From an uncultured Planctomycetia bacterium (GTDB lineage: Bacteria; Omnitrophota; Gorgyraeia; Velamenicoccales; JABMQK01), in contig CAZFPS010000005.1 in NCBI GenBank assembly GCA_964520705.1, positions 1 through 41,169 on the forward strand: a stretch of DNA of 41,169 nt, read 5' to 3'. The notes beneath the pieces are model-generated. The model searched no databases and was not told where the DNA came from. It was given only the letters and a program-made list of their open reading frames with translations. Shown here one piece after another: positions 2,447 to 41,169 of the stretch. The first letter of the stretch is position 1; each line of letters begins with the position of its first letter. The translations under genes were made by a program, and so were the position numbers.

Positions 2447-2453
2447 ATAGCCC

Positions 2454-2949: not shown

Positions 2950-2950
2950 T

Positions 2951-3434: not shown

Positions 3435-3473
3435 CTAATGATTATTCTTTATTCTTAAAGGGGGTGACCAGAG

Positions 3474-10803: not shown

Positions 10804-11334
10804 AATGATTAGTCAAGCACGCACAAAAACTAAGAATGATTACAATGATTGATAAAAAAGATTACAGTGATAGGGCAATGAGAAAGGATCCTCTTACAGA
10901 AAAGATAATTTCTTGCTGTTTCAGGGTTCATAAAGAATTAGGCCCTGGATTTAATGAGCGAATATATCAGAACGCTCTAGAGATTTTATTTGAACAAGAG
11001 TCATTAGGATTTAAGACTGAAAGAATGTTTAATGTATTTTTCCAGGGTCAAAAAGTAGGCAGGTTAAAGTTAGATTTATTAGTAGAGGATCAAGTTATAG
11101 TTGAACTTAAGGCAGTAACAGGAATTGTTCCTAAATTATTCGAGTCACAGTTAATATCATATTTAAAGGTTACAGGCTTAGAAGTAGGATTGTTAATCAA
11201 TTTTGGCAATCGTAAGTGCAGCATTAGGCGTTTAATGTTATCTAGCTTTGGACATTCTGAAAATAATCACCGTAATCAGAAATTAAATCAATGTAATCAA
11301 AAATATAATGATTAGTCAAGCACGCACAAAAACT
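10804..11334 (+). mobile_element. putative inserted GxxExxY cassette bounded by 28-bp direct repeats and 12-bp inverted repeats
   Basis: AATGATTAGTCAAGCACGCACAAAAACT is identical at 10804-10831 and 11307-11334. Inside, GATTACAATGAT (10838) and GATTACAGTGAT (10860) face ATCACCGTAATC (11266) and ATCAATGTAATC (11287). Confidence 0.65.
10836..11315 (+). CDS. GxxExxY protein (PD-(D/E)xK nuclease-like)
   Basis: 'VHKELGPGFNERIYQNAL', 'LDLLVEDQVIVELKAV', 'QLISYLK...GLLINFG'. The true start may be ATG 10878. Confidence 0.93.
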   Translation: MITMIDKKDYSDRAMRKDPLTEKIISCCFRVHKELGPGFNERIYQNALEILFEQESLGFKTERMFNVFFQGQKVGRLKLDLLVEDQVIVELKAVTGIVPKLFESQLISYLKVTGLEVGLLINFGNRKCSIRRLMLSSFGHSENNHRNQKLNQCNQKYND

Positions 11335-29300: not shown

Positions 29301-32300
29301 TTCCGACTCGCCGCTCGCTCGGCCCGGGAAACCAAGATTCTCCAGATTTGCTAAATTCTTAGGTGTGCTTGGCATAGCTATTGTGGCTAATCTTTGGGGA
29401 TGGGGCGCAGGTGCAGGCGCGGCAGACAATTCCGCCGCCGAGGCTAGAAAATTGCTGGCTATGCAGGCGCAGGCACCAAAGCCAGCACTCGGGATACTTG
29501 AGAGAAAGGCATTGGACTATCTCGAAGATATTAATTTCACTCATATAATTTCCAATGCGCTTGCCAACGCATCACCAGAGGAGCGATATGACATAGTCTT
29601 TAGATTAGCAGATGGATTAACAAGAGCGAATAATTATTATGCAGTTAAAATTGCACGGAAATTTGCATCTATGCCATCAGACGATCCTCTCAAAAGTGTG
29701 GGTGTGGTTGCTTTAGAAGATATGACTATACCTAATGCCAGAGTAGCTCTTGAGGGCATTTTGAATTCTCACCCTCGCGGCAAGGGCAAGGCTCTTGCTA
29801 TGATTATTGAGCCGGAACCCGATGATCCCGCAATGGAAAATTTTGTTAATTTAGAGGTGAAGCCATTGAGGCTGGCTGGCTATGAGACTGTTGTTGATAC
29901 AATAAGAGGCGATACAATAATAGGCCCATTTGGAATTATTGATGCCGTTGCTTCTATAGGCGACAATGGCGAGATGTGGAATAGTTTGCTCATATCTTCA
30001 CATGGTAATTCCAAATTTATATATTTTCCTGTCTCCAAAATGCATCTAACTGTTGACGATTTTAATTTTATGGAGTCTTTTGGTTTAGATCGTTATGTCG
30101 ATCCTAATGCACTGCTTATTAATAGCAGCTGTTATTCATTAGATACGACCATTGTAGATAATTTTGGCAGAGGTATGGGGCATCTTTTAGGAGTCGAAGA
30201 GGTTCAGGGGGCTGTGGATAGAATAGAAGCAAGGCTTACATTTTCTAATAATAGGTGGGGTGTGAAACTATCATCAATCTATGGCGAAGTTGCTTCATAT
30301 CACCCTGTTGATAGCACGCTTATTGTTAGACCATATGAGAATGAGAAAGCGCCTCGTAGTTTTTTAATAGACAACGCGCAGTTAAATGAAATCATTTATT
30401 ATGTTATTGACGATCTCAGAGGATACGAAAAATTTATAAGACAACAGCCGCCAGGAGAACAAACTGAGCGGTTTGAGATATTTAATAAGAGGTTAGCCTT
30501 ATCTTATACGCTATCTGCTGAATACTTACTCGGTGTTGATACCAGCAGTGTTGATATAGGCAGATTTTATGCTAAGTCCTTACAATTATTTCCTGAATTA
30601 GAGGATAGTTTAACAGATTCCGAAATAAGATTAGCTGAACAAGCAGGGCATACAAAACCCATTGATTTTTCAAAATATATTGATATAGGCATTGGGAGTG
30701 GTCTGTTAATATTAGTAGCCCTTGGCGGTATAGTGAGTGCATATAATAATATAGGATGGGGTGGTTTAGCATATTATAGGCGCAGAGAAGGAGATGGGCA
30801 GCAAGCCGAGGTCAAAAACGTTGCAAACAAACGATCCGCCTCCTCGCCGATGAGCGTAACCACGGAAACACGGAAAATTAACAGAAGCACAGGTGGTCTT
30901 AATGATTTAACACTTAATCTTTCTTTCGATAACAATGGAGCGCCGCAGCTCGTCTTAGAACAAGAAGGCAATAGTTCGCCAGTGGCAGTTGCAGAGATAG
31001 ATTCTTATAATCCTCAAACTCGTACGCTTAGATTTAGAGATATACAATCAAGTAGCCCGTTAGCTACACAAGCATTAGTCACCAAAGTATTAGATCAGGG
31101 AATAGCTGTTAAAGTTGAAATCGGCGCACCAATATCCAGCCCAACAGTAGTATCAAACATCGACGCTATAAATAGAGAATTACGTAATTTAATACTTAAT
31201 TCTTCAGAGTTAAAAGCAGTCTCTTCGCCTATTTTTGTAGGAAGGTCACCGATTACTGGCGAGGCAGTCCATAGATTGGATATCAGCAGAAATGATATCA
31301 GTAAGATTTCTTCATCTCCGCTAGCTGAGCAGTTGAAACAACTGCCGTCTTCTTCTCCAATAGCAGTGGATTCAATTAGAGTTCCGCAGAGCAATATAGT
31401 TTCTTTAAGAAGCGCGGTAAAACAGATTGTAGAAAGAGGAGATGATTTCACAGAAGGAGGATTTTTGTTGTTTGGTCGTCAGGACGGAGAGAATTATTCT
31501 ATAAGTGGAATAGTTCCGATAAAAAGATATAGTGATCAGCGCTATGAAGGTTTTGTACCTGACAGAGAAAGCATGGTTAAACAGATCATCGAGCATGCTG
31601 TCGCAGATATAAAATTGATCGGGGTCCTACATTTGCAGCCTTTTGACATGACAAAGTTATTGCAAAAACCAGGCCCGAGCTGGGAAGACCGTATTGGCGA
31701 TGACTTCCTTCTTCCTGAATTAAATGATAAGATCGCGAAAGTTCCTTTAGGAATTGTAATTGAACCTACAGTTCCTAGGGACATCCCTGTATCTCAAATA
31801 GCAAAATTTGTCCCTAAAAACTTTAGCACATATTTCTATTTGCCGGTAAGTAAAACAACAAGAGAGATCAAGATTATTGGCGATCCTGTTGATTTTGAGC
31901 ATTGGGTCAGTCAGGCCAGATTTGCTTCTTCGCCAATTAAGCAGATTGAGCCATTAGCTTTACCTGTGTTAACAGCAGACCCTATAAGTTCGCCAATACA
32001 AGCTGGAAGAATTGATATTCCAACAGGAGTTGAAGCTCAATTAACTGCGCAAATATTCTCAAGCCCGGTTCGCGCACCACCATTAGACGCAGATAATTTG
32101 CGTGTATCTGCGTTAGATTCGCGAGAATTTGCGTTAACAAGCTCACCACTCAAAGCACAAATAAAAACCGCCCTGCCATCCACAAGCTCACCACTCATAG
32201 AAGGCTTCAGACCTTCAAGAACCCTAAAAGAGCTAGAAGCTGAAAATTTCAGACAATTAGGGCAAGAATTCATTAAAGAGGTGATTATTGGATTTTATGT

Positions 32301-35300
32301 TGATAAGATGACACTAATTTTTTCTGACGCAGTACTTGCTGATAGATTCTCAGGAGATATTGATAGTATAGCACAAAAAGCAAAAGATCTTGTAGGCGCT
32401 TTATTGGATATAAGAGATAAGCAGGTTTTCGCGAGAGAGGAATGGTCAAGATACAAACCAGTCATTTCGATACTGACTACTTTAAGTCTTGGAGACCCCG
32501 CAGATATCGATATTATCAATAAAGGATTTAGTCCTATCGTGGAATATTTAGCTCTTCTTGCATCGGATTCTTCTCCCAAGCAGAATATTATTGTGGAAGG
32601 ATTTAGCAGATTAAGACATATACTTAATAAATTTAATGATTGGTTGTCGAATCAAAAGTCTATAGAGTTAGGACATTATTTAGGTGATGAAGAGCGAGAG
32701 ATTATCGCAATAGATAGACAAGATTTGGTAGAGTTTGAATATCCGCCTGTTGTTTCTTCGCCACTATTAGAGCCAGCCGTTTTAGGGCGTAATGATATAA
32801 ATAATATAGGTAAGGCTGGAGTTGGCGGTTTTGGCATTGGTGGAGCTGTAACTATAGGCGGTGGCGCAGGCGTAGGCGGTGGAATGTCTTCACCAATGGG
32901 CAGTGGAACTAGCGGTTTTGGCAGAAGCGGAGCAGGCATTGGTGAAATGGGCTCCAATTTAAGTGGAGCTAATAAGCTGCTTAAGCTTGAGATAAAGCCA
33001 ATTGAAATTATTCCGGAGATTTCTCAGCAGTCTTCACCCATAGGTGAAACATTTATAGATTTTAAAGGAAGATTTGATAGAGCTTCAGCGCCATCTTCAC
33101 CAGTAAAATCAAACAGGGACAGGGCTGACCAGAAGCCTATTTTGCCTTCTCAGGTCCCTGGCACTATGCCATTTATGCCATTACCAATGTCAACGCCAAT
33201 ACAGGTACCTGCGCAAAATGCTAGCAGTCCTGTTATAGATTTAGCAGTTCCCGCATTAAGTGCCTCACCTAGCAGCCTATTCGGTCCTTCTGCACAAGTG
33301 CCAATAGGCGAACTTGTGATGAGCGAGCGGGTAAAGGCCCAACAAACATCAGTTGGGTATGCACGCGGACCCACAGTGAGTTCGCCACTTGCGAGTTTCT
33401 CTGCTCGCAATTGGCAGAAGGACAAGAGAACTCCACTACAGCCAGTGTTTACGGCGATAGCTTTAAGTCTTATAACTTCTGACTTGAAAAGAAGTTACGA
33501 CGGAAAAGGGCCTTTAAACAGAAAGCCAGATTCCTGGATGCCCACGGTCTATACCTACAAAGCATTAGTGAGCGCACTAAATAGCGCAGCTCTTAATATA
33601 GGTAACGGCCTGAAAGCCGAAGCAACGGCAGTAGCCGGATGGGTCAAGGTTGCCTTAAGGCAGATCAAGGCTCAGATAGCCACTGAAACAGCAGAGGCTG
33701 GCACAATAGCGGCTATGCCTATAGCAGCTATTAGCTCTCCTGCAATAGCAGGATATAGCCGAATAGCTAATATAGGAACAATGGCTCCTATAAAAGACTC
33801 AGCTTACTTCGCAAATCTAGAAGATAATAGCAAAACGCTTAACTCCTCACCATTAACAGAGTTAGGTAGGAATTTTGAAAACATAGTAATTTCCAAAATC
33901 CCAGGTGCCCAGAGTGTAACCTGGAAATTCGCATTTTCTAGACCAATTAGCGATTTAACCTCAGCTCTTGTTACGCAAGAGTATAATGAGGGTCTTTTTG
34001 CGTCCAGTCCCACCATTGATCTAACCAACGAACCAACTAACAAACTAACAAACTATAATAGAAGGGGTGTTTTTGTCTCTGCTGGCACGAATTTCCACGA
34101 ATCTTACACGAATCCACACAAATATTCTCTCAAATTTTCATCTTCGCCTCTATCGCTGAAAGCCAACATAGCTAACCTATATAATAATAAAGTTAAGCTA
34201 AAATTTGTTTATAATTTAGCAGCACAGAATTTTAGAAATAGTCTGAAAGATGATAAAGATTTTCTGAAAGATATTCTGGGATATGCATGGAAGATGACAA
34301 TAATTTCCGCAATCGGTATTTCGATAATGGTAGCAGTAACGATACGTCACGGTCCAAAAGAAACAAATTGTATGCTCAACTCCCGTAACGAAAATATAGA
34401 GGTAGTAATTAACGTGGATTTTGGCGGGCGCCTACGTTCAGATTCATACGCAAATGAACGCGCACAATCGATATTCAATAGAATTATAGAGACAAACAAA
34501 CTTCCTCCTACATATAAACTATTTGTAGTAAATGAAGGTCGTGATGCTTATGCTAAGTTTGGTAACATTATCCTTCCTCTGTGGATGTTGCAAATCTTCG
34601 ATGATGAGATGGTTAGTTGGATTATTAGTCATGAAATTGCTCATTTTACCTTGGAATCAAGTAACAACAAAAACGCAGACAAACTAGGTTTTGAGTATGC
34701 AAAAACAGCTGGGTATTTAAAAGAAATCAAATCCCCCAAGAAATTTAGAAGAACAGTTGAAAAAGAAAGCAGAGAATTTTTAAAGATACGTCCTACTGGC
34801 AGGCTCTGCGGCAGCAGCTGCGGCTCCAGCCCGGTCAATAATCTAACAAACTATATATCCGCCTCCAAATTCGCCTCATTATCAGCAAGTTCGCCAGCTA
34901 CTTCATTACTACCGGATTCTCCAGTTTTAGCTGATGCGAGAAGCTTTGAGACGTTCCTTTACACAGAGCCAATGAGACAGGCATTAGGTAATATTATCCA
35001 AATTTTAGATATAGAAAGTGTAGAATCAGCCTTTGTCACTCATGTTACCGCGGCACCAGGAATGACCGAACCTTACTTTGTTAAGTCAGAAAGAAAAACC
35101 CAGTCAGAATGTCCCTTAGTGCCCTTTGAAGTCGAGCATGAAACCGTTAGTATTCATTCTCATCCCTTTATTCCTGTAGGTGTAGAGTCTTCGGACGGTA
35201 GTATATCTCAAAAAGTAGAGGTTGCTATTTTGCCAGGTTGCGAGGATTTTGATGTTTTTATCCGCCAGAATGGTAGGGGAGTTTTAGGCATAATATGGGG

Positions 35301-38300
35301 CAATAGAAACGTAGGATTCTACTTAACAGCAATTATTACTAATAGGATTCCAGATTACATTACATTAATTAGTCACCACGAAAAAGACGTTAGAAAAGCT
35401 ATCGATGTTTTAAAGCAGAACCAAGCAATAGCTTTTTATCGGCTTAATTTTGGAGTTGAGACTTTAAGTCCGTATTTTATAGAAGAAGGAGTCATTGTTG
35501 AACCTGAAAGAATAGCTGCGCAAGATGCCATTGCGGTTACAGAACGTCTAGTTGCCAATCCTGATTTAGTAATTGAAGACGATATAAGGGTTCTTGCTGG
35601 TTTTAGTAGGTTAGCCCAGGAACAGTTTAGAAACAGAGAATTTTCAGAGATATCTGATGCTGCAAGCACAATAGAGGCTTATCTAATGAAGATAGGTGAT
35701 TCATTGAAAAAGAAGATTTTTTCTGCTGATGGCGTAAGAGAACAAATAGCAAGAGAACAAATAGCGATGGCATGGGAAATGAATCGCTTGTCTGCTATAC
35801 TTAGAGGTCTTAAAAGAGCGCTTAGTGAAAAGGGCGTTTCAGTCTTCCCTGCTTCTGCCACCGCTTCTTTAACTTCAGAAGAATTATTTCAGTCCATCTG
35901 GCTTTCATCGTCACCTGTAGCCAGCTTGCTATCCGCCTCCAGCCCTTTGCTTCGCTCAGGACGTCAGCCCCAGGAGGAATATAACCTTGATAATTTAGCT
36001 GGTGCCTCCAGCCCGGTTGAAAAATCCAAATATGATAAAGAGAGGGATGCAGCCATAACCAAAATAGCACGCCTAGTCATAGCTCTAAGGCCTCAGGGAG
36101 GTAACTTCTATAAGGCTGTAAAAGAGTCGATGATGTCTCAAGGCAAATCAGGACGAGAGGCATGGAGTTTTGCAAATTATGTATTTACCGACAAAGGAGA
36201 ATTGAAAATTGACCCTTACAAATATGTGCCACGCAGCAGTGAGTTTGATGGCACTATATTAGAAGGCAAAGACCCAGAATTCGAGGGCACTATATTAGGA
36301 TACACCGATTCAAGCTATCCCGCCTCCAGCCCTTCGCTTCGCTCAGGACGTCGGCCCCAGGAGGAAAATAACCCTGATAATTTAGCTGGTGCCTCCAGCC
36401 CTATGAAGGAAAATGCTCTGCCGATAGATGCAGGAGCTGATACAAGAGTTAATAACAAAAATGGCAAAGTTAGTGGTTTAGCCAGCCCAGTGAAATTAGA
36501 TACAAGATACATAATGCATGATGCAGGAATGACAGGTAGCTCGCCAATGGTCTTAGATCTCATAAGGTTAGGACGTGCACAAAATATTTCACCGAATCCA
36601 TTTATGGCGGCTGGCTCATCGCCCCTCCAAGAAACCGAGCCAGGTCGTCAGAGCACGAATTCCCGCAAATTCCACACTAATACACACGAATATTCATTCG
36701 AATCCACATTCTTCGCTTCCGCTCGGAATCCTTCGAGGAATCCTGAGCAAGGCGAAGGACCAATATCCTCACCAATAACGATAATTAATAATAATTTAGA
36801 TAGATTTTCTTCACCATTAACAAAGGCCAAAAATGTATTATTAGGAAGCATAAGAGGCTTATTTGTAAGGCTTACCCAAGTAATTTCGTTTCGAGCAATA
36901 CGTAATTTTATATTATCTATATTACTAACCATATCAGTAGGTATGTCTTTCATTTATTTTCCAAAAGGAATTATTTCTATCGTTTATCCTCCTAAAGATA
37001 ATCTTACAGTATTGATTAGTTCAGAATATAAAGAGGGCTACGTATTGGATTATTTCTTTTTCAATACGTATGGGGCAGTATATTTTGGATTGAAAGGAAT
37101 AGAATTAGATATAATCTACGCAGCAACAAAAAATGATTTAAGAACTGTATCAGGTGATTCGACTAAACCTAACATAGCCGTTATGGGTCATGGAACATGG
37201 AATGAATGGATAGCTTCTGATAGCGTCGTCACAGAAGATGATATTAAGAGATGGTATTCTTCAGGAGAATTCCCTAGGAAAGAGTCGATTATCCGCTATA
37301 CATGCGGCTCAGGCCGTTTTCTCTTTGATGAGCAATTTGGCCATCATGCAGTTGAGGATCCCCAGACACAGATTAGAGGTTTTGATTTCACGGTGTCTCC
37401 CATAGAATTTTTAGTAAAACCCACAGCTTTTTCTCAAAAAGAATTAGATTCAGAAAAAGGTAATTGGCTATTGAATGCTATGAGAGCTCTCAGAGGAGTC
37501 GAGGATCCTATCACTACTACTGATTATATGAGAGCTGATAAAGAAGTTGAGGATACTATCTATGGAAGAATGATGGGAAATCCCAGAATGCTAAGAAAAT
37601 TTAGATTACCATTATATATAGTAGGGGAAGAAGAAGACCACAGAAATATCAATGGTTCTACTTCATTGCAGACCATCCTAATCTATGACCAAGCCTATTC
37701 CGATAGTTCTTCTTCACCTTTAACAGAAACCAATTTAACAAAAACCACGCAATCTTCACCTGTAACCTACCGTGGCAGGTTGAGTGAGGAGATTGTAGCC
37801 AATTCAGGGGTAAATGTTAGCAGAATCACCCCCTCCAGCCCTCTGGTTTTAGGTAAATTTTTAAACTTTGACAACAGCTCCTCACCTACCGTGGCAGGCC
37901 TCGTTAGAAATATTGTTAATAAATTTAAGAGATTTAATTTGATTATTTCTACCGTGGCAGGTATTGGGGAACACACCAATCCAGCAGGGTTTGTTAGAAT
38001 TACCCCCTCTAGCAGCCCTCTGGATGAAAATTTTGACAACAGTTCCTCACCTACCGTGGCAGGTATTGGGGAACACACCAATCCAGCAGAGGCTGTTGTT
38101 GGCAACACCCCCGCCATTAGCAGCCCTCTGGATGGGGTAAGAATTTCAAGTCCTTTGAATTCAAACGAATATTTAGAGGATATGACAAAACGCATAATCA
38201 ATGAATGCAGACAAGACAATTACTCTTCTTTGAAATTAAGCTGGGAGATGGCAGTATATGATTATCAGGAATTTATAAAGCATGCCGCTGCCATAAATGC

Positions 38301-41169
38301 TGCGCTTAAAGAAATTTTAAATTCTAAAACACATCGAGCTCAGAGTTTTGTCAATTTTATGACTTTTCTAAAGAGTGCCATAAATACAAGAATAGATATG
38401 ATTGAGCATTACCAGGCACCATTATCAGCGACAGGAGAAAATAACATACTTTCAATTAAGCATCTTATAAGTCGCTCTGAGGATATAGATAGTCTTTTTG
38501 ATACGTTCAAAGATCTTATGAATCCCTCAGATACTTGGTTTATTCCTTTATTTGATGAGGAAAGAAAGAAGATCATTTCGTCAAGGGGTATTTTAGCTAC
38601 TAGGACTATAGGTACTTGGGGTTGTTCTACTCAATGTGACCACTGTGATGACGCAAGCCTCATCCAAGTCACACCTTCTCCATCGAAATGGCTAAAGGAA
38701 AGCAAGGAGTATATGTTTAAACTAGACGAATTCCACAACGGCTCCTTTATAGATTATTATTGTTTTGTCTATGATAAATATGGTAGTTATGTGGCGTTGT
38801 TATTTGATAGAAATAGTATAATAACTTCTCCATTTGAGATAGGTTCTGTACCAGATAGGAGTTTAAAGAACTTATTAGAAATGGGTAAATTAGATTATTT
38901 TGTGTTAAGTGTTGCTCCTAGCGCTTTGATGCGTAGAATTGGAATTGAGAGATATTATGAATGTATATATCACATTATAGAATTACTTAAGAAAAATAAA
39001 ATTTCCTATAAATGTTTCTTACATATGTTTAGGCGTCAAAAGGATCCTTTAGATATTAACAAAATCCCAGAGAAGGCTAAATCGCTATTAAAAAATGATT
39101 ATATTGAAAGAGACTTATTTAGATGTGGTAGACTTTGGCAGTTAATAGAAAAAGGTTCAATAGATTCGACTTCGATAGGTAATCTCATTAATAGTTGTTC
39201 TACATTTTTTACTCATAAAGATGTTGGTAGTTCTTTTCTGCTTCCTGATGGTCAAATTGTCTACGGAGAAAACTATAGACAGGGTATTTTATGTCGTATA
39301 TATAGAACTGTCCCGGGGCTCGAATCTATAGGCAGAAGGTCTATTAAGTGTTGGTATTGTAAATTGGATTGTAAAGGAAAATCAGAAATTGGATGCCCAG
39401 GGCGACAACAGGTATTTAAGCCATGGAATTTGTCTGCTGATGGCGGATTTCTTGAAGATAAAAACAGTTCACCATTGAGCCTGACACAATTGGATGAGTC
39501 CTTAGCAACCTTCGTACCGATAAGTGAGTTAATAATAGGAGATAGAGAGACTATAAGACAAACCAGTTCCCCACTTACCGTCTCGCCCGCCACAAATCTT
39601 GGCGGGACTTCGTCGTCGCTCGGCAAAGCTTCCTTTGCTTCGCTCAGGACACTTCGAAGGACACTGAGCGCAGTCGAAGTGCGCTCCTCCTCGCCTGCGG
39701 CTCGGGGAAATTCTGATGCAACTCTAAGGGGTATCCTCGGTGATTTTTCCGTCGGAAAAACTGGCTCGTTACGTAACATGTTACGTAACAACCTGGAAGG
39801 TAATGCTATCGAATTCAGCTCCAGCCCGGTTGAAGGATCAAATGAGGTGCCTGCCAAATTTGAATTCCAAGCAAAAATAGGGAATCAGATGACTTTAGGG
39901 GTAGTAATAATAATACTTAGAGAAATTACGAGAGCAGCAAAAGAGGATAATCTAATAGAGGTTATAAGACAATTATATAGACTAAGAACACCTCTTACAA
40001 CGACAAACTGGTTAAAGATACCAGAAGAAATAGAAAGGGCAAAACAGATAATAATTAGCCACCATATTAGAAGTTTAGATGATTTGATAAAATATACCGA
40101 AGCTGATGTGTTAGGCTTATCTGAAGCTGTTAAGATATTTCTAAGAATATATAAAAAGTTGTTAGAGAATCGTATTAATATTACCTTAGACCGCATTGCT
40201 GAAGGCACAGCTTTTAAGCGCAATAAAATGGGCGATGTGTGGAAATATGAACTGCGGCCTATTTTAGAAGCCTCAAAGCACAATTGGCAAGATGAAACAA
40301 TACTGGTCGACGATAGTAGGCATATTAACAAAATTGAAAAGGATGAATTAGCTGCTTTAGAAGATATGGAGGATGTAATACGTGATGATATCGATAAAGG
40401 CAATGTACTTATTTATGATGAACTTGTGGAATTGGTTAGAGGATTGCCAACTCCACCATACGGTAAGCAACTACCAAAAGACAAAATAATAACCTTATTA
40501 GAAAAGATTGGGCTCAGCAGAGCACAATTCAATAGAATAATAAAGAAGAGAGAGAAAGACAAAAGTAAGGTACTAATTATCGAAGAAAAAGAGGAGGAGA
40601 TTCCCGATCTTGAGGTAATTATAGGGATGAGCGAACCGGGGAAAATTGAATATATATATAAAGTTTTGGGAGATATCCGTAAAGGTGCAATAGAGGGAGC
40701 ACAACAAGGAACCATAAGCAATCTCAGGTCCCTAACACTTAAATGTGTAAAAGAGGCAATAAATAGAAATTTATTTAAACTATTAATTGGCAGAAGTAAT
40801 TTACCAGCCAGTGCATCAAAAGAAGATATCAAGAAAGCCTATCTAGAAGGAAAGAGAACCCGTGATAGCCAAATACTTAAAGGAGTTGAAGATATGCAAC
40901 AAAAGAAAATTAGGGCAGCTAAGTTACGCCGCCAAAGAGAAATTGCCTTCCAGATTTTAATGAATGATGAGTTGAGAGTTGTGTATTTAGGAATGAGACC
41001 AACTCATATTGATATCTTTGAATCCGCTAAAGCAATTACTGCATCTAAAACTACTAGTAAGAAACGCAGTGGTAAAGGTTCCTCACCAATAAAACAAACC
41101 AGCTCCTCACCTACCGTGGCAGGCCCCGTTAGAAATATTGTTAATAAATTTAAGAGATTTAATTTGATT
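11308..41169 (+). CDS. giant secreted/membrane multidomain protein, at least 9,954 aa, 3'-truncated by the window edge
   Basis: ATG 11308 in frame +1 begins MISQARTKTGGFKTWMRVVALTVLVIFTPQQIAWA|IDY (Sec signal, AxA site). Every segment I translated is open, through to ...KRFNLI at 41169. The ORF track shows no closed frame +1 ORF here, as expected if there is no stop. Confidence 0.93.
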   Translation, partial: MISQARTKTGGFKTWMRVVALTVLVIFTPQQIAWAIDYDWRTIWRASQMQSSAASSPAMTIPYAALKSAGFEKQLAFNIKESLNSLRSSNAQSVLFSNDVVVERTNRAAITEDSIDSIYKQLVDSNNDIITCGAYSLFNMMLAYGLTSISDKQKTEKENSPSILDIANTIILIDLLSDPDLLPTFRENQLEVSFYSLIKAAEAYGMKLVPFHLETYKKDLESINKLVSFPFIATIDEPHTVLVKQIDKNGVLVIDNDVERLIALEEFKDRFMGYCLAIEVAKDPSIKVISPYDARSIKINRRSRQYKITTFNDLFPEPNWQDQFLSLAANLLSAGLGGKGHSRNVANQIFASKISQLATNVAVNNWGWKPKNAQIFGSAVGGGIAGFNSPGSTFLKGAAQGAAQGYATTVAYKWLKNTAFYKNNPEIGMQAVGMIGSTMSTLGLSIFTKQGMPGAIEANKFAMAKGFAGGVFDLGIQYSASQGWLGKAFEKNPTFSRVLGQSASGWFSRNDGLSTSKFLGKQALSAGVSLGLDALGGEYDKKTNKNRWGMTPTQMAAVTYGGTAFLEAGLARSFNIFDFKKDGMWDLMKNNFINNVALNMNPGQYGMVKTGRKILNKDTGEFVDEQAFDLYAGSMHLSRLGEFSGVGYFEGQVDLAVEDGGYASWKELKQDRGSINLLPSLSASMVRQTASVLHTAATNTAVNIIDRKLIKPFIAHANWQKKQHRGPMALVGGAEQEFADVGLVPTEIDISQKDIEDIYNGKINSVTLRSKDAPNEILGVYKIDRETEEITIINFANDNASTTFKLKKGQTPIMLLADAVAGNLPHIELTALSENAYLQKAEYSRGIGGWILDKLGLWDPAFEPDTIIGQRLREDKKHWFDPILMTAVLKHNEHQLQLDLLSGMKGTQKLTAWEVYNLKVEQKGLPIGLVSFVAAKGYESGIFVSIGKNKIQVPVASLSGTWVDKGKPQALFLFNADLRAKFEEEGNSLFHSNLPGQARETYGSISRVTGKDDAGREIELGWQIDKGSLVAFNLSTTSSSTFRNKGTTDPLIEKEWIEALKSSPSESTPLEDQFGYEETVNDVNRVFFSGFTVLGESGGIDAGRQRTFMSAGVDGFQGERTSVIEWQQYGSWNVSGSWDRLSGWDYVMDFSYKDKGAEHTGPQIWEGRKTTTQKREEGFIKGTAAFRPLYQPLQANIVPVAYNQQVDRGLGYLWDTTVDIYNKQTYGLSNTDIFMAENYFGGFQIQNEDRKKMLSSGQMIGYLKDQGATDSVAEAFEDVISFAGDGESGDRSRHTFNMMYQDNSGTYSQNPLSVVEDKSGDGKWTGTLYLLNLDLNRNGDSLNAQIMRSSVGKDGTIIQQIDIFDMKEGERQNQFSLSADSQKRQDIVTEGDGLHAVIITPGEESMPINAAEIEALTGSFEQADGKVVETGLLINENFSTSLTGWAIKSDRENVGGWDNTNKVGFDFGDGIKEKDIIEQAETITDETPVNHLLVNVGKDGGTKALIEAWGIDIDDKKNLQNEGVPRRGRFVLKESGDHQVAIVDNLPTITQHSDYRFDNTGAPDPLTGWWAFDTSEEDGSTANLQFGESMFPDNINERIGVEYAIIKSINSEGNYADAITSIMHFDRANPLTWQTPKTTLEDGTILTLPSGWRVQGADTVGEVQQLIDDGKIKLTTAKDAPNLGGVINRLHAFEKINGQWQPYMEGHGEISLGVVTDADNVERSPFGDRKYALELQADIKGEVLHPGLYVSVDPTKRAEAMEAASVAMSRTDPQTGETQIYNSADDVDPSAPTSFSLEGSSWDGSNTQIQVLGLSESGNHRVSGDISYLLSGYNFTPYENIGTGSKIEIAKGMPITTVSPGMQTINPATGTHSISQYVVTNFETAEDTQIEFGDLALKKDGTIDRVNTTTGGISVGANTTGVLFDDVSLTTPSVFGDARVINTMYDKEGGFLGRDVAEINFGDKDNSVALTTLDPKYDVKFYRYRDQENQAEIQGDYSGIVVENLQEGQTSAFAGSATTVGAKRLDSLKGGIEEVAVQWTGAIIGERNPQVLTPSIFGTDSSGTSSRQEAFSDGVVILGKLFDEKYTVDEQDATFEGNPLTFHVTAGDWDEVSSGDLSMLAPTGESWSVEQKSLFNNYVINTGLADLSGYKQPAQDIFDAEFQEADRVSVTPLIRTRQDGSGASVLEGNIPKQSYIVRSKEGSPRLGMESTVFLTDKTLFRFRSIDNTIDRTIGLDLLQPAIDENIAPVFQGLANLSFGAKSKYLKAFNHLRLFSKNMYSSKVAKVCAMALSEQLRSTPEFSDALGRALADLPLATLEIDGAEVAKQSIIDAFEKFMSNPSSRNPDAFAESVFIALNSNIPEVVQINYEEIENNGEVNNVAYQMLEGSLGKLNHVPLSNSRYLDDKHWDDEQQAFIVPVEWLAKDKDSGLGYRLIPENEAFPSFSFNPLSGGKGGEAGTGITLSEKFNQDVPYFSIYTSSERINPLATFEVFQKTGTWQFNTSGGFLSVAGQPIRDIAAKEGVKEITFDNKGRAKFDVGLIQTLVFNEPSAVVSTDTQEGLGLVYKKGSQWESKQISEDAIGFVPLVGGKPLGANDSISSHIGVSSLYNNSDLAGTFRESVTGPGPVIMPEKVSYWAGQGFVLSFDMADGENARNFAFLSNSPQPSNVEQKGKIADFHPVVGNENLSRSNLDRLPYSVVVTDAKVTDKTVKLSGTLPDSPAAHKRIEGDVLRDAFIVTPFDNTALPAGFIADTALSMNAGYTLPSSITNAQLQEVSQERVLGSNNGEGSIDIGRGTSIYQGNLYFKDGGYSIGQGAQGVIKQESKVKGQSTTSILFDVDFSLLGNGTQPINVDFAYHQSASSRIKPNDLWKFTETQQDINNIGRIYTYLINFDESSPGVFGVAKWNEITEKRIVKRKNDMGIYYLEEFGTGTYAPLRELFIDLDNDFNFYGEVVSIEQAGSKWESKDQRDKIEFNNLRPNVTPEAFYQNSEDPNLIGFSFSEDSGRSLIYQDQSGNDVNFDLNRYGSFAGSTMLEGQGPFIGDFTTYRPQGEEGSLWEGAKNIASSAWSLLKGGSGDGSVPEATAYTDKATGWTHYQGKLNLDVQAPFSTTSSVSVNFQNAVFNIPEGKELVGFSTNDYGEAQMSTYSSKTKDGRIIFDSAGEIDERIDVGLRNDQILYDWSLIGGGRMYKPGSERYRPGFDPESTGPRELSISAGPSWWENTLENVTNYAVLALLVINPVVSTLAMPDASKQAIQGVKNDWTLAVYKAEERRRFTSEIGIGTTHALSEFIVTPEGRMVLLMPLAALGETAIAANYLARLTTISQAIGRAITFGKVASPTLQALVGASAVTGTTAVVGGLGFNAATDKGLTEDLVSYAVKGTLLPVAAYAAYTRIGAQLFLAGSEIYKLATTGEHLTLGEMEAISIASLIPAGRIGKYTSSAFQGTRTGMAIQWLTRPASLASSTWGKIGYAAGSSATLATIGTLGTEGFTRAYSGKGLTWKQRGTIFSTLFFGNVARLSVAGLTQWGAKGIESGLGLGNQGAIIQLGSNTGKLGVVRSGLLRVARPVLGGLNCGASLGFVGGGVGLMTHRWEEDQVEIIEGFVVPQDPSLWKTFGSTLSVFGKSAKIPALFGTGIGFVGGLGLGNVLKPTSGWSYAIWPALALTGRGVYDGGRYALGNRELSRLEAKPDKTPQDVARINELRNKVYFEGKNYVDIATLAVGLRFLKGSNLINPATSTLSNLWRHAKLMGFGAGLNVGKDLAMGYANKWFDISFGESIEIKDANGAPVYLKPGLTFGQQYSEGSFFASALRGAVWAEIGSYAVNNASTVLGRASGKYGALRPQPIEGSPLLRHKLPLSGADRLGIEGLIGAVKWTYIGPAFSVFGGAWKSSMYALASGGELPNGTLFNIDSAIDFNNDGKIQDNESVLIPLKSREGMRNLLGSIRESPISGVVLHPMIGIASRNPVTASSGIGRAMEKTQSMFGTNRITSEAGNLFRIAGFVSAMDVALEMGSTISGPGESTGYNDLGTRYTRLNRQNLATGIYGTERSAASWGLLFNLPTFTGPRATGLVDNQGRPLDSEGNAIPQKTSLYDHTGREIDSNGNPIPVPGKPVKLVGATGQPIVKGRQVKHSKASEFYEKVYGSSVLPSDSHADFAEKMVRMSEILSSYEGPTLRILEQGDTGVGKDSVTAAYQNFATGKRSVLMVPTNANAKNAAAEAKNAFAQLGLHGKSVEIIELGKEGSFAKLSTNPDVVILTDINAKSFASFLRDRNSLLSRFGREIFEDSNVIIPEWIYSPDLQTPSGNTGGLSQIKSSIEGRSMRRQVNREAKIYKELKLWEHIEFEIPIDGETIYNPHLSETGINKYVERHKADNLTALKSQKGGEEKVAAIQSLVQAHAYAIEAGSKNVVPIRGKTIRLVERYGYQYDVVLHDRIKAHAESMMGAKLAREAGRKDFGKLDPLHKYSAGRFDRISTGDVFDVAERFGARSIQAWSAGIDKIEARELQSIHGFQRINDRGLPERYSLTEGRIPFDSQRNFRFSEKSLDQEINGMVQLAIRDKQGPLVLEENMPGHSWDDILMSTVRAARKSGADVLVLEYSGEMKEIKTSRLNVDRAMRTAKKVELWGNKQKDTIGALDRVANGEKVVLLMARGHLRGTNVKLGARGTQRILNDLKSTETLTAQGKDRVRGLYEEIDKGKFDVNFEKPFTNVDLNAEAGKRGMEIVVFGAPRDMTFKRYSEAMKVNDVTFAKEGRYQTRMEYTLNMAHRFNRDILNRVDSKAARKLIEDADWELRKTNEIWLHLDLKGELGRAPDRLQETLNRSIDSLRKIYNKDGRLYKSLSEELRNFVDTELQPRISTAIEWGREVKGAKRLDAMTTPEEARIALGHHTRIEDLPKHTPRTMEGQVVRSGVKGVREVLQIIESSTIESGRDLMNIAPAVGYQTFLDIEFQDDDPNNKQRVQWLANSQNNATQGGVFTHDLAFVYTYAGLKEIARSPSQVTAYNTAIGQSSFLSQDEKEALILPIGEKISDAQAFDIAVKLSETKMVDLANYDRRGLDSIVTVGNALRGLWAASDISGRTDSKPLDRENFNYLRDNYGITQTGAHRVALGLIDKDQNSTAHSILAKSLEDRVSALRLVERFHDSKMLRPLVPLVNKLYSTKLYGGKVSDLIDLSDALVSGSELDTSILSLPGELANIYMPSRLDFNYSYNDLVELGVTKFNKIKVADLAKLGSKNITKKQLSKWGVSSREIKKVAKEIGKIAKSKKQLTFEALDKFVEDKRIDQRNLNTLAFGLGAGTHPEIQLNLIKLRGFINKTDLGRSFTSDKLKRIDLTHTTAFGLADGVYNYSTSLKAKPKKKDIDAVHIDTAITQGIAGHTSIPMTNMNKFAKLYTYKERETLDMGDLQDLFFKLTDKILPVENHDIIIQSGNLLEDVSFDLQQLTLRLNININKTLSHQLAIGREAIRLGLENNNIELRSQKAIETAKTIIGENHNLLHVWNSVKPKRALYDIPQKLLDVKDKIELQANEEIEGNVDDLIDATLSTLKQLSPELDIPADFKIDRDRLRAFVLSYKVKLMMPEEMRHAGPAESISDKNSNTIALDIRNIDEQGLGLKPFTRSLILGHEPIHVILQGVANQLEENIGKDQEDQLDKIRKLKIGQLENEPIVYLLNLRTMGKIFGNRSKEVTAPAVKQLIRKVVPGSKGRLRDLPKSNKELYAKLKGLEQRHGLGVAANLEEYALIDLPDLGQADNGLTPPRGTTPPIGPSSGGGFGNDGPSISDYTPAPPIDLLSPPSPDRPLGGKSSPLSMPKMGKVDIKSIGIGLALAVISMLPSFGGDLQAQQLPEIPEIGSSYQQVGALELDALPSLQSLSFGPLSSAGYQSYLPTSFMSMSGIDNQKWLVKLVQDMEKLKAELREVEMEKAQAKMDQIREDIKKTRIEFAKIAKEISSLKIDPPATISSLETSMSSPMAQQQLPQPKPIAVSSPLVPLALETSSELALARSDSPLARPGKPRFSRFAKFLGVLGIAIVANLWGWGAGAGAADNSAAEARKLLAMQAQAPKPALGILERKALDYLEDINFTHIISNALANASPEERYDIVFRLADGLTRANNYYAVKIARKFASMPSDDPLKSVGVVALEDMTIPNARVALEGILNSHPRGKGKALAMIIEPEPDDPAMENFVNLEVKPLRLAGYETVVDTIRGDTIIGPFGIIDAVASIGDNGEMWNSLLISSHGNSKFIYFPVSKMHLTVDDFNFMESFGLDRYVDPNALLINSSCYSLDTTIVDNFGRGMGHLLGVEEVQGAVDRIEARLTFSNNRWGVKLSSIYGEVASYHPVDSTLIVRPYENEKAPRSFLIDNAQLNEIIYYVIDDLRGYEKFIRQQPPGEQTERFEIFNKRLALSYTLSAEYLLGVDTSSVDIGRFYAKSLQLFPELEDSLTDSEIRLAEQAGHTKPIDFSKYIDIGIGSGLLILVALGGIVSAYNNIGWGGLAYYRRREGDGQQAEVKNVANKRSASSPMSVTTETRKINRSTGGLNDLTLNLSFDNNGAPQLVLEQEGNSSPVAVAEIDSYNPQTRTLRFRDIQSSSPLATQALVTKVLDQGIAVKVEIGAPISSPTVVSNIDAINRELRNLILNSSELKAVSSPIFVGRSPITGEAVHRLDISRNDISKISSSPLAEQLKQLPSSSPIAVDSIRVPQSNIVSLRSAVKQIVERGDDFTEGGFLLFGRQDGENYSISGIVPIKRYSDQRYEGFVPDRESMVKQIIEHAVADIKLIGVLHLQPFDMTKLLQKPGPSWEDRIGDDFLLPELNDKIAKVPLGIVIEPTVPRDIPVSQIAKFVPKNFSTYFYLPVSKTTREIKIIGDPVDFEHWVSQARFASSPIKQIEPLALPVLTADPISSPIQAGRIDIPTGVEAQLTAQIFSSPVRAPPLDADNLRVSALDSREFALTSSPLKAQIKTALPSTSSPLIEGFRPSRTLKELEAENFRQLGQEFIKEVIIGFYVDKMTLIFSDAVLADRFSGDIDSIAQKAKDLVGALLDIRDKQVFAREEWSRYKPVISILTTLSLGDPADIDIINKGFSPIVEYLALLASDSSPKQNIIVEGFSRLRHILNKFNDWLSNQKSIELGHYLGDEEREIIAIDRQDLVEFEYPPVVSSPLLEPAVLGRNDINNIGKAGVGGFGIGGAVTIGGGAGVGGGMSSPMGSGTSGFGRSGAGIGEMGSNLSGANKLLKLEIKPIEIIPEISQQSSPIGETFIDFKGRFDRASAPSSPVKSNRDRADQKPILPSQVPGTMPFMPLPMSTPIQVPAQNASSPVIDLAVPALSASPSSLFGPSAQVPIGELVMSERVKAQQTSVGYARGPTVSSPLASFSARNWQKDKRTPLQPVFTAIALSLITSDLKRSYDGKGPLNRKPDSWMPTVYTYKALVSALNSAALNIGNGLKAEATAVAGWVKVALRQIKAQIATETAEAGTIAAMPIAAISSPAIAGYSRIANIGTMAPIKDSAYFANLEDNSKTLNSSPLTELGRNFENIVISKIPGAQSVTWKFAFSRPISDLTSALVTQEYNEGLFASSPTIDLTNEPTNKLTNYNRRGVFVSAGTNFHESYTNPHKYSLKFSSSPLSLKANIANLYNNKVKLKFVYNLAAQNFRNSLKDDKDFLKDILGYAWKMTIISAIGISIMVAVTIRHGPKETNCMLNSRNENIEVVINVDFGGRLRSDSYANERAQSIFNRIIETNKLPPTYKLFVVNEGRDAYAKFGNIILPLWMLQIFDDEMVSWIISHEIAHFTLESSNNKNADKLGFEYAKTAGYLKEIKSPKKFRRTVEKESREFLKIRPTGRLCGSSCGSSPVNNLTNYISASKFASLSASSPATSLLPDSPVLADARSFETFLYTEPMRQALGNIIQILDIESVESAFVTHVTAAPGMTEPYFVKSERKTQSECPLVPFEVEHETVSIHSHPFIPVGVESSDGSISQKVEVAILPGCEDFDVFIRQNGRGVLGIIWGNRNVGFYLTAIITNRIPDYITLISHHEKDVRKAIDVLKQNQAIAFYRLNFGVETLSPYFIEEGVIVEPERIAAQDAIAVTERLVANPDLVIEDDIRVLAGFSRLAQEQFRNREFSEISDAASTIEAYLMKIGDSLKKKIFSADGVREQIAREQIAMAWEMNRLSAILRGLKRALSEKGVSVFPASATASLTSEELFQSIWLSSSPVASLLSASSPLLRSGRQPQEEYNLDNLAGASSPVEKSKYDKERDAAITKIARLVIALRPQGGNFYKAVKESMMSQGKSGREAWSFANYVFTDKGELKIDPYKYVPRSSEFDGTILEGKDPEFEGTILGYTDSSYPASSPSLRSGRRPQEENNPDNLAGASSPMKENALPIDAGADTRVNNKNGKVSGLASPVKLDTRYIMHDAGMTGSSPMVLDLIRLGRAQNISPNPFMAAGSSPLQETEPGRQSTNSRKFHTNTHEYSFESTFFASARNPSRNPEQGEGPISSPITIINNNLDRFSSPLTKAKNVLLGSIRGLFVRLTQVISFRAIRNFILSILLTISVGMSFIYFPKGIISIVYPPKDNLTVLISSEYKEGYVLDYFFFNTYGAVYFGLKGIELDIIYAATKNDLRTVSGDSTKPNIAVMGHGTWNEWIASDSVVTEDDIKRWYSSGEFPRKESIIRYTCGSGRFLFDEQFGHHAVEDPQTQIRGFDFTVSPIEFLVKPTAFSQKELDSEKGNWLLNAMRALRGVEDPITTTDYMRADKEVEDTIYGRMMGNPRMLRKFRLPLYIVGEEEDHRNINGSTSLQTILIYDQAYSDSSSSPLTETNLTKTTQSSPVTYRGRLSEEIVANSGVNVSRITPSSPLVLGKFLNFDNSSSPTVAGLVRNIVNKFKRFNLIISTVAGIGEHTNPAGFVRITPSSSPLDENFDNSSSPTVAGIGEHTNPAEAVVGNTPAISSPLDGVRISSPLNSNEYLEDMTKRIINECRQDNYSSLKLSWEMAVYDYQEFIKHAAAINAALKEILNSKTHRAQSFVNFMTFLKSAINTRIDMIEHYQAPLSATGENNILSIKHLISRSEDIDSLFDTFKDLMNPSDTWFIPLFDEERKKIISSRGILATRTIGTWGCSTQCDHCDDASLIQVTPSPSKWLKESKEYMFKLDEFHNGSFIDYYCFVYDKYGSYVALLFDRNSIITSPFEIGSVPDRSLKNLLEMGKLDYFVLSVAPSALMRRIGIERYYECIYHIIELLKKNKISYKCFLHMFRRQKDPLDINKIPEKAKSLLKNDYIERDLFRCGRLWQLIEKGSIDSTSIGNLINSCSTFFTHKDVGSSFLLPDGQIVYGENYRQGILCRIYRTVPGLESIGRRSIKCWYCKLDCKGKSEIGCPGRQQVFKPWNLSADGGFLEDKNSSPLSLTQLDESLATFVPISELIIGDRETIRQTSSPLTVSPATNLGGTSSSLGKASFASLRTLRRTLSAVEVRSSSPAARGNSDATLRGILGDFSVGKTGSLRNMLRNNLEGNAIEFSSSPVEGSNEVPAKFEFQAKIGNQMTLGVVIIILREITRAAKEDNLIEVIRQLYRLRTPLTTTNWLKIPEEIERAKQIIISHHIRSLDDLIKYTEADVLGLSEAVKIFLRIYKKLLENRINITLDRIAEGTAFKRNKMGDVWKYELRPILEASKHNWQDETILVDDSRHINKIEKDELAALEDMEDVIRDDIDKGNVLIYDELVELVRGLPTPPYGKQLPKDKIITLLEKIGLSRAQFNRIIKKREKDKSKVLIIEEKEEEIPDLEVIIGMSEPGKIEYIYKVLGDIRKGAIEGAQQGTISNLRSLTLKCVKEAINRNLFKLLIGRSNLPASASKEDIKKAYLEGKRTRDSQILKGVEDMQQKKIRAAKLRRQREIAFQILMNDELRVVYLGMRPTHIDIFESAKAITASKTTSKKRSGKGSSPIKQTSSSPTVAGPVRNIVNKFKRFNLI
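11680..12140 (+). other. peptidase C39-like domain of the giant protein
   Basis: 'TCGAYSL' (Cys 11701), 'SFYSLIKAAEAYG', 'PFIATIDEPHTVLV' (His 12022), 'VLVIDN' (Asp 12070), 'EEFKDRFMGYCL'. Confidence 0.8.
20990..23490 (+). other. Gly/Ala-rich multi-helix hydrophobic (membrane) region of the giant protein
   Basis: Successive segments such as 'YAVLALLVINPVVSTLAM', 'ALVGASAVTGTTAVVGGLGF', 'GASLGFVGGGVGLM' and 'LFGTGIGFVGGLGLG'. Confidence 0.65.
23760..25620 (+). other. degenerate SecA-like (SF2 DEAD motor) domain of the giant protein
   Basis: Walker A-like GDTGVGKD (23845-23868), then collinear SecA landmarks: ATGKRSVLMV..AFAQLGL, FASFLRD, VIIPE..QTP, EARELQSIHG, RGTNVKLG, GMEIVVFG. Confidence 0.7.
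27960..28330 (+). other. zincin-like HExxH metallopeptidase motif region
   Basis: 'IALDI...SLILGHEPIHVIL' (HEPIH 28168-28182), with downstream 'ENE' as a possible third ligand. Confidence 0.5.
29780..30250 (+). other. caspase-hemoglobinase fold (clan CD) peptidase-like module 1
   Basis: 'LLISSHGN' (His 30001) and 'LLINSSCYS' (Cys 30130), each after a hydrophobic strand and 43 aa apart. Confidence 0.6.
31375..31900 (+). other. JAB/MPN-like module 1
   Basis: 'TEGGFLLFG', 'LIGVLHLQP', 'PSWED', 'LGIVI'; the second His of HxH is replaced by Gln. Confidence 0.65.
34400..34730 (+). other. M48 (HtpX/Ste24-like) metallopeptidase module
   Basis: 'DAYAKFGNIILPLWML..FDDEMVSWIISHEIAH...NADKLGFEYAKTAGY' (HEIAH 34630-34644). 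Confidence 0.75.
34950..35340 (+). other. JAB/MPN-like module 2
   Basis: 'VESAFV', 'VSIHSHP' (35155-35166), 'LPGCED', 'VLGIIWG'. Confidence 0.55.
35933..36401 (+). repeat. 82-bp direct repeat pair flanking a roughly 100-codon insert
   Basis: 35933-36014 versus 36320-36401, 4 mismatches; each copy begins and ends with GCCTCCAGCCC (ASSP). Confidence 0.9.
37000..37430 (+). other. caspase-hemoglobinase fold (clan CD) peptidase-like module 2
   Basis: 'NIAVMGHGT' (His 37189) and 'SIIRYTCGSG' (Cys 37303), 38 aa apart, preceded by a TM helix. Confidence 0.55.
38560..39420 (+). other. radical SAM-like module with SPASM/twitch-like Cys tail
   Basis: CxxxCxxC 'GCSTQCDHC' (38623-38646); later 'NSC...LLPDGQI' and 'CWYCKLDC...GCP'. 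Confidence 0.7.
40780..40992 (+). other. J-domain-like module lacking HPD
   Basis: 'LPASASKEDIKKAY' and 'AFQILMNDELRVVY' match DnaJ helices II and III-IV; there is no HPD between them. Confidence 0.55.

Follow-up and report, generated by a model that had tools for sequence, protein, structure and literature searches.

A repeated linker pair inside a giant open reading frame

The locus described here raises the question of how a gene of some ten thousand codons can gain, lose or move protein modules and still keep a single open reading frame (ORF). We analysed an entire contig (C5) of 41,169 nucleotides (nt), called the window below, from the 1.88-Mb genome assembly (G000; 134 contigs, 89% complete) of an uncultured bacterium. 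The window contains a giant ORF, and within it a short direct repeat brackets a unique segment in frame. The original prediction took this arrangement for the footprint of a recent cassette acquisition, in which linkers would act as recombination joints for modules within one ORF. We identified the repeat as a member of a family of 78-nt linkers that begin and end in the tripeptide Ser-Ser-Pro (SSP), and comparisons with related genomes support the view that linkers at SSP joints act as sites of in-frame module gain, loss and movement. The features on which the argument rests are the following.

11308..41169, + strand: giant ORF of 9,954 codons, 5' end complete, 3' end cut by the contig end
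35938..36015, + strand: linker element copy 1, 78 nt or 26 codons, SSPLLRSGRQPQEEYNLDNLAGASSP, scoring 76.4 bits with the sequence-only model R1
36016..36324, + strand: enclosed cargo, 103 unique codons (VEKSKYDK...GYTDSSYPA), an orphan
36325..36402, + strand: linker element copy 2, SSPSLRSGRRPQEENNPDNLAGASSP, scoring 80.8 bits with model R1
35944..35962, + strand: 19-nt core CCTTTGCTTCGCTCAGGAC, a decayed hairpin of 7 base pairs (bp), CCTNNGC-TTC-GCNNAGG, with a twin at 36331-36349
36241..36298, + strand: 36-nt tandem duplication inside the cargo, EFDGTILEGKDP / EFEGTILGYTDS, 19/22 over the seed

The window holds one 82-nt direct repeat pair (35933-36014 and 36320-36401) whose copies are identical at 78 of 82 positions (95%). 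Start to start, the copies are 387 nt, or 129 codons, apart, and both therefore read in the same frame, that of the giant ORF. The predicted pair and its in-frame insert of about 100 residues are thus confirmed, the insert measuring 103 codons, and both copies run from A-SSP at the start to A-SSP at the end, as had been claimed. All four differences between the copies alter the amino acid (L/S, Q/R, Y/N, L/P). BLAST of copy 1 against the whole assembly returned copy 2 at E 5.7e-32, and neither this search nor model R1 returned a third full copy from the assembly; the further copies of the 82-mer that had been envisaged for this genome were not found.

A family of 78-nt linkers

The repeat belongs to a family of 26-codon linkers of the form SSP-SLRSGRR...NLxxLAGx-SSP. 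When the surrounding 634-amino-acid (aa) protein was compared with relatives, nearly all matches fell on the linker itself: 75% identity in a 29,111-codon frame of another genus (G002), 59% in the 39,687-codon frame of Candidatus Velamenicoccus archaeovorus LiM (G007) and 56% in G015. The fifth match of this query, again in G002, fell downstream of the repeat pair. Full-length DNA copies were identified in eight of 41 genomes searched (G000, G001, G002, G016, G007, G008, G015 and G006), all of them in families f1 and f2, and four further genomes matched only an 18-24-nt core. Model R1, in a search that applied stricter filters to more than 40 genomes, gave matches in seven of 151 genomes drawn from the class. 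Its strong matches are restricted to the order of the window genome (16 in G006, six in G007, six in G008 and two in G000).

We extracted 15 copies, representing 14 distinct sequences from eight genomes. All are exactly 78 nt long with no insertions or deletions, and all 15 lie in the same frame, on one strand, within open giant frames; this location refers to copies whose surroundings were translated. Their consensus is SSP-(S/A/L)(L/F/V)(R/H)xGR(R/Q)...N(L/P/F)..(L/S)A..-S(S/G)P. Members of this family nearly always encode SSP as TCCAGCCC, and among SSP motifs fixed codons are confined to the linker family.

The flanking sequence differs on both sides from copy to copy, and related genomes thus provide the repeat copies bordering different cargo that the original prediction had looked for. 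In G006, two to four linkers follow one another in arrays whose period is 69 nt, because neighbouring units have one SSP in common. In V. archaeovorus, a linker pair matching at 76/78 positions (144404 and 148593) encloses 4.1 kb of cargo, the same linker-cargo-linker layout as in the window.

Conservation of the linker as DNA

Between genomes, linker identity is nearly equal across codon positions 1, 2 and 3 (0.76, 0.77 and 0.70), and there is therefore no excess of synonymous change. The middle ten codons (11-20) score 0.63, 0.57 and 0.67 at the three positions, while the ends of the peptide are best kept, codons 1-10 and 21-26 scoring 0.84-0.89 at positions 1 and 2. Against the same-genus genome G001, third positions under identical fourfold-degenerate residues agree in 14/17 and 15/16 cases within the linker (82-94%), compared with 77/206 and 287/722 (37-40%) by the same measure in orthologous N-terminal parts of the gene. 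The linker is 89% identical to that of G001 at the nucleotide level, and the adjoining module is 37% identical at the amino acid level. By these comparisons the element is conserved as DNA rather than only as a peptide.

Folding of the 82-mer does not exceed that of shuffled sequences (z 0.39 and -0.14; reverse strand 0.31). A structured RNA or attC-like hairpin was rejected on these z-scores and on the lack of an Rfam match at this site at gathering scores. A function for a Shine-Dalgarno-like AGGAGG or for off-frame stops (TGATAATTTAG) was also rejected, since the family f2 copies conserve neither.

SSP as a joint at the protein level

The window frame contains 54 SSP tripeptides against 3.5 expected, compared with six SPS and eight PSS. 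All but three of them (51/54) lie after residue 5,800, and the residue that follows is L, V, I, M, T or A in 50/54. The V. archaeovorus frame contains 93 SSP (7.4 expected), written with 43 different 9-mers and followed mostly by A or S. Not one of the 93 falls inside the 31 Pfam stretches of that frame, where 11.5 would be expected from coverage (binomial P 4.8e-6). For this count the frame was scanned against Pfam in 13 pieces at E <= 1e-5 and the best stretches were merged into 31 intervals; with only the best stretch per family per piece retained, the domain coverage is a lower bound. Because the 54 SSP of the window frame are encoded by 34 different 9-mers, SSP is a separate joint motif at the protein level and not a DNA recombination site.

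We considered whether SSP plus a former start codon marks the scars of gene fusions. This was rejected, as the following codons include CTA, CTC, TTA, GTT and ATA. In V. archaeovorus (G007, 29823-148883, 39,687 codons) the joint reads (L/V/I/F)-SSP-(A/S), with a hydrophobic residue before SSP in 28+19+19+7 of 93 cases. The hydrophobic residue stands before SSP there and after it in the window gene; the flavours of the joint are therefore lineage-specific.

Turnover of modules and linkers in relatives

Five genomes of the genus Velamenicoccus were compared over 1,025 aa of the V. archaeovorus gene. In all five, an upstream module U ends in ...EPSSF-SSP, and what follows differs by whole modules. 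V. archaeovorus (G007) has U-M2-M3-M4, in which M2 is an oxidoreductase module. G008 and G005 have U-M1-M2-M3-M4, where M1 is a 240-aa methyltransferase-like module followed by SSP and then M2. G010 has U-M1-M4, with SSP between M1 and M4, and in G023 M4 stands directly after U.

The linkers at a given joint vary as well. At the M2/M3 joint, G005 carries a bare single SSP between flanks that are 81-84% identical. V. archaeovorus has three mini-modules at this joint, two of them from the 78-nt family (one is internally frame-shifted, its DNA still alike), and G008 has other linkers in another order. The block inserted at this orthologous joint is bounded by TCCAGCCC on both sides. A block of 'linker + ERVELPLPMKEG' (ERxELxLPMKEG) occurs in V. 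archaeovorus at the M2/M3 joint ('a') and in a metagenome relative at a C-terminal joint ('c'). Closer to the window, the G001 gene is colinear with the window gene over aa 1-699, 1279-3520, 6527-6678 and 7183-7564. Its single linker stands directly after aa 7564, from where homology is lost for about 3,900 aa.

The proposal that linkers are joints within one ORF thus stands in so far as relatives show turnover of modules and of linkers at SSP joints. Its second part, recombination between linker copies, is a mechanism that we infer, as we do the origin of the linker-cargo-linker layout of the window from such recombination.

G007 (C1:148593) and G008 (C2:123667) do not differ over the last linker and some 180 aa surrounding it, other parts of the gene being 82-86% identical. 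The 3' end of the giant gene may have been exchanged recently between these two genomes.

The enclosed cargo and its junctions

The cargo is weakly predicted to form about three helices followed by a disordered tail; the AlphaFold2 single-sequence model behind this prediction is of poor quality (mean predicted local distance difference test, 46). It has no Pfam family, no match among proteins of 182-2000 aa (weak evidence), and none in 26 other genomes of the order or elsewhere in its own genome. A phmmer search of 1.84 billion representatives gave one match, a low-complexity repeat protein aligned over aa 73-91 only. A known gene was rejected as its origin, since the Pfam, protein, genome and phmmer searches gave no informative homologue, and so was a degenerate linker array, since model R1 with filters off found nothing in 36016-36324. 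With neither a stand-alone nor an embedded homologue in the searched proteins, the order genomes or its own genome, neither the stand-alone relative that had been sought for the insert nor a source cassette emerged. Close relatives offered no orthologous joint able to polarise the event.

An assembly artefact or a chance match, which would dispose of the pair altogether, is a negligible prospect. The window's contig ends inside another repeat, and assembly does break at repeats here. Logan contigs, however, cover the stretch in three runs from at least two studies, in each case with 0 letters different from the window: in run X1 over 34112-36057 and 36057-36767, in run X2 (a different study) over 35833-36044 and 36082-36232, and in run X3 over 35713-36084. 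The junction from copy 1 into the cargo is crossed in X1, X2 and X3, and an X1 contig starting in the cargo runs through copy 2 and on into unique sequence. These contigs were built separately, so an artefact would need the same mis-assembly in all runs, and the match between copies (E 5.7e-32 within the genome) is far from chance. The contigs from three runs thus rule out the artefact that had been named as a possible refutation.

The 19-nt core and its relation to REP-like repeats

The original prediction had also noted in each repeat a half-site resembling repetitive extragenic palindromic (REP) elements. The 19-mer CCTT(C/T)GCTTCGCTCAGGAC is indeed present in both copies, and palindromic REP-like elements elsewhere in the genome have it in common. 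Its stem is perfect in the linker copies of G001 and G016. The window has a third exact 19-mer at 39632 and a copy with three mismatches on the minus strand at 36740, where 0.01 matches are expected by chance. At up to three mismatches the genome contains 15 sites, six outside long frames, some of these visibly the 5' arm of a longer palindrome, and nine inside giant frames. Within giant frames every reading frame of the core is used, and the core also occurs on the opposite strand; its forward readings are PSLRSG, FASLRT and VLRFAQD. Four further repeat features of the window are as follows.

39615..39700, + strand: full palindromic REP-like element with the same 19-mer, read in another frame (..SFASLRTLRRTLSAVEV..), with an SSP motif on either side
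36653..36780, - strand: REP-like hairpin (36700-36780, fold z -2.04) and CACGAAT-type repeat (36653-36703), read through in frame
37875..37944, + strand: first copy of a second in-frame direct repeat pair, 69/70 identical to 41100-41169, spacing 3225 nt or 1075 codons
41100..41169, + strand: partner of the 37875-37944 repeat, cut by the contig end

The second pair brackets a 1,075-codon stretch. As the contig ends inside its second copy, the break in the assembly falls within a repeat of linker type, beyond which the giant gene continues.

In-frame spacing is common in this genome. For eight contigs that carry giant frames, 62 same-contig direct repeat pairs were listed, and in 57 of these the spacing is a multiple of three; among the five in which it is not is the 35933/36320 pair, which is listed with a one-base alignment gap. 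A second linker family, SSP-LTSFLARSRTSSSLRS-SSP, is present in at least 10 copies of 85-100% identity on contigs C4 (20721-39757) and C8 (11403-14232). It lies in other giant frames, carries an 8-bp hairpin (CCTTGACC...GGTCAAGG) and has different neighbouring sequence each time.

Four Y1 transposase matches (Y1_Tnp, Pfam accession PF01797) were identified in the genome. None lies on a contig with the hairpin pattern, and a link to REP-associated tyrosine transposases (RAYT) was rejected on this ground.

In the stretch 36605-36765, one X2 contig agrees with the window as far as 36649, then diverges and soon reaches TCCTCCAGCCC (SSP). It resembles the shorter version of the joint in G002; the evidence is one 44-nt piece. 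The stretch behind 36649, with its CACGAAT-type repeat and REP hairpin, may be an in-frame insertion that is absent from a related population.

Weighing the explanations

The explanation we prefer, on which our confidence is evenly divided, is that a REP-derived DNA repeat became fixed as an SSP-to-SSP linker, that its copies serve as substrates for recombination, gene conversion or slippage, and that the window pair is one product. The 5' part of the linker would be derived from, or shared with, a REP-like hairpin repeat present in these genomes. Since all copies share one frame and their length is divisible by three, each pair of them would provide 70-80 nt of portable homology. Modules could then be added, deleted, duplicated or moved by recombination, gene conversion or slippage from copy to copy, with the giant frame left intact. 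The window layout would be the trace of a 'module + linker' unit integrated at a resident linker, or of a linker copied to a neighbouring joint, and the pair would render the 103-codon module deletable as an in-frame 387-nt unit. A wider generalisation is less likely than not: the giant genes of Velamenicoccus-like Omnitrophota might be in-frame cassette arrays of unrelated enzyme modules, joined throughout by SSP with a small or hydrophobic residue and continually reshuffled, at some joints by way of REP-derived portable linkers conserved at the nucleotide level and with no dedicated recombinase, and SSP might also provide polyprotein cut sites.

Several observations weigh against the recombination of linker copies. 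The whole-module breakpoints in Velamenicoccus lie at ordinary SSP joints coded AGYTCNCCGGCG, which share about 10 nt and are not the 78-nt element; the element is therefore not needed for module insertions and deletions. The comparative support comes entirely from other genomes, which are related to one another and not independent. Only two full copies, both in one giant frame, are present in the 89%-complete assembly, and exchange partners are therefore few. The anticipated deletion allele, a joint skipping the 387 nt, was not found in the Logan contigs of four runs, which drop rare variants and in which the uncovered parts of the stretch in X2-X4 are uninformative. An exact 36-nt probe of the left junction matched 0 metagenome contigs, a set from which records of the own genome were possibly excluded. 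Finally, the window copies agree at 73/78 positions and copy 2 agrees with a copy of another genus (G002) at 72/78, so that the likeness of the pair dates no event. Sequence constraint could explain this likeness, and the copies need not be recent duplicates. Given these figures, the orphan cargo and the lack of a deletion allele, the claim that the acquisition was recent is not supported.

Selection on the encoded peptide would explain the likeness differently. The linker might be mainly a functional peptide, either a flexible tether or a polyprotein processing site cut by C39 at or next to SSP or after ...NLxxLAG(A/S), with the copies as punctuation around a small module; we rate this as rather unlikely. 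In its favour are the single frame and strand of all copies, the better-kept ends of the peptide, and the enrichment of SSP and its avoidance of Pfam stretches in V. archaeovorus. Double-glycine sites have G at -2, G/A/S at -1 and hydrophobic residues at -4 and -7. Before the second SSP, a G at -2 followed by A or S at -1 (..L-A-G-(A/S)) occurs in nine of 14 copies, and in the other five V or S replaces the glycine. The giant frame begins with a C39 domain, and one preprint proposes cleavage by C39 or S8, calling the cleavage points unknown (West-Roberts et al., 2023, 10.1101/2023.11.21.568195). A predicted complex of the C39 domain (aa 95-300) with the linker peptide (aa 8334-8373) scored 0.00, with controls unfolded, and is no evidence either way. 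Peptide selection alone is disfavoured because the middle ten codons drift equally at the three positions and all four differences of the window pair are non-synonymous. Synonymous sites are also kept far above background, giant frames contain the 19-nt core in every reading frame and in reverse orientation, and the M2/M3 joint of G005 works with no linker at all.

The same DNA-level conservation could instead reflect a selfish REP-derived mini-insertion that enters SSP-coding sites in frame, with duplication of TCCAGCCC. The window pair would then be two independent insertions flanking an older part of the gene, a cargo that was never mobile. We regard this as unlikely. The 19-nt core shared with intergenic palindromic repeats, at 15 sites in three frames and both orientations, argues for it, as do the presence or absence of the element at an orthologous joint among congeners, with the block bounded by TCCAGCCC, and the single SSP shared by units of tandem arrays. 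The cross-genus likeness at synonymous sites fits an element younger than the genomes, and the X2 contig that diverges at 36649 hints at a polymorphic REP-bearing stretch. Yet no copy of the 78-nt family was seen outside giant frames, and strand and frame are the same in all. The 82-mer lacks a fold beyond shuffles, none of the four Y1_Tnp matches is linked to the hairpin pattern by a shared contig, and copy number is low (two here, at most 16 per genome). Neither this reading nor the functional peptide is exclusive of recombination between REP-derived linkers.

Likeness to known systems

Rickettsia palindromic elements (RPE) are repeats inserted in frame into protein-coding genes. The window element resembles them in being short, conserved at the nucleotide level and located in an ORF, where it keeps the frame and adds a peptide, and in its kinship with intergenic hairpin repeats. 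It differs in having no hairpin fold over the 82-mer and only a decayed 7-bp stem in the 19-nt core. Its family, moreover, was seen only at SSP joints of giant genes rather than scattered through many unrelated genes, and its linkers keep one strand and one frame and form tandem arrays and pairs around modules.

REP elements and bacterial interspersed mosaic elements are associated with RAYT transposases. The 19-nt core is similar to these in its imperfect 7-bp hairpin and its roughly 15 copies, some intergenic and some within longer palindromes. It is unlike them in that no Y1 transposase lies near any copy and most copies are in coding sequence and translated.

Integron cassettes are separate promoterless ORFs bounded by attC sites, which are imperfect hairpins, and are accompanied by the integrase IntI. 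As in integron arrays, the cargo is bounded by repeated sites, the arrays of relatives differ by whole units, and an event between two sites would excise 'cargo + one site'. In contrast to integrons, linkers and cargo share one frame of one gene, the direct repeats have no attC-like fold, and the proposed exchange is driven by homology and is not site-specific; an integrase was not seen and was not searched for. Modular megasynthases and repeat adhesins exchange modules by recombination in conserved inter-module sequence, and like them the giant proteins have many modules and would be altered by in-frame recombination at conserved boundaries. Here, however, the boundary is a dedicated 26-codon element with a three-residue joint motif, and the modules are unrelated enzymes, not repeats of one kind.

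The nearest known system is the giant 'Archaeovorin'-type gene of Omnitrophota (West-Roberts et al., 2023, bioRxiv 10.1101/2023.11.21.568195). The window gene resembles this type in its frame of at least 9,954 aa, its N-terminal C39 domain and the Tad/T2SS-F locus before the gene. V. archaeovorus LiM, for which an ORF of 39,678 aa is cited in Seymour et al. (2023, PMC10066038), belongs to the same order and carries the linker element three times in its giant gene. In their accessible parts, the giant-gene papers cover domains, topology and neighbouring loci (10.1101/2023.11.21.568195; PMC10066038), and the SSP joint, the 78-nt element and module insertions and deletions at joints are not among the descriptions published there. 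The words 'linker', 'SSP' and 'recombination' are absent from the accessible text of two preprints (10.1101/2023.11.21.568195 and 10.64898/2026.06.07.730766), and 'shuffl', 'mosaic' and 'fusion' from that of the 2026 preprint (10.64898/2026.06.07.730766).

These results bear on the origin and the poor conservation of giant Omnitrophota genes, which range from 10,000 to more than 100,000 codons, and on the possible cutting of their products. They offer three handles on such proteins: a joint that avoids every recognised domain (0/93) and at which close relatives have gained or lost whole modules, a linker element at the DNA level by which some joints are marked and which is copied from one joint to another, and in SSP a simple way to cut giant proteins into modules for structure prediction. 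Two questions become testable, namely whether proteomic neo-termini occur at SSP and whether module turnover at linkers is driven by homology.

Genomic setting

The giant ORF encodes a Peptidase_C39 domain near its N-terminus (Pfam accession PF03412, E 1.4e-07, aa 188-279), the sole Pfam domain recognised within its 9,954 codons. Archaeovorin-type genes are further marked by a divergent SecA DEAD domain, numerous transmembrane helices and total lengths of tens of thousands of aa. No SecA family match was found at E <= 0.01 among the 9,954 aa present, the frame being truncated by the contig end. Directly upstream, two ORFs match T2SSF (E 4.5e-19 and 3.7e-15), and Tad is matched weakly, below cut-off (E 0.00078); this Tad/T2SS-F region is only part of the published locus of more than 10 genes. 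The order of the window genome includes V. archaeovorus LiM, and the order members with the same linker element, this organism and a Candidatus Omnitrophota bacterium, point to the phylum Omnitrophota. On the basis of the C39 domain, the upstream Tad/T2SS-F genes and the order shared with V. archaeovorus LiM, the window gene belongs with the giant Omnitrophota genes that West-Roberts et al. (2023) and Seymour et al. (2023) describe.

A further upstream ORF, for a PD-(D/E)XK_3 nuclease (10836-11315, + strand, E 7.3e-36), overlaps the start of the giant frame by 8 nt. Ahead of this ORF is a 47-nt direct repeat (10655-10701 and 10835-10881) of 83% identity.

The sole Rfam match of the window is a cyclic di-GMP (c-di-GMP-I) riboswitch at 2321-2408 on the + strand (40.1 bits against a gathering score of 35). 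It lies upstream of three short repeated starts (3246-3282, 3486-3522 and 3865-3901) that read ..KGQSTVEY.. and look Flp-pilin-like by eye, and also upstream of the Tad/T2SS-F genes located ahead of the giant gene. The second messenger c-di-GMP may regulate the locus of pilus and giant gene.

The assembly contains other giant open frames, among them 16,934 codons filling C2, 13,693 on C1 and 10,428 filling C17. Contigs C1, C2, C4, C7, C8, C17 and C35 together carry eleven open frames of more than 3,000 codons, and C2 and C17 are open from end to end. Contig C2 has an internal 953-nt repeat of 100% identity (23156-24108 and 25121-26073), and the same 63 nt terminate C2 and the reverse strand of C17.

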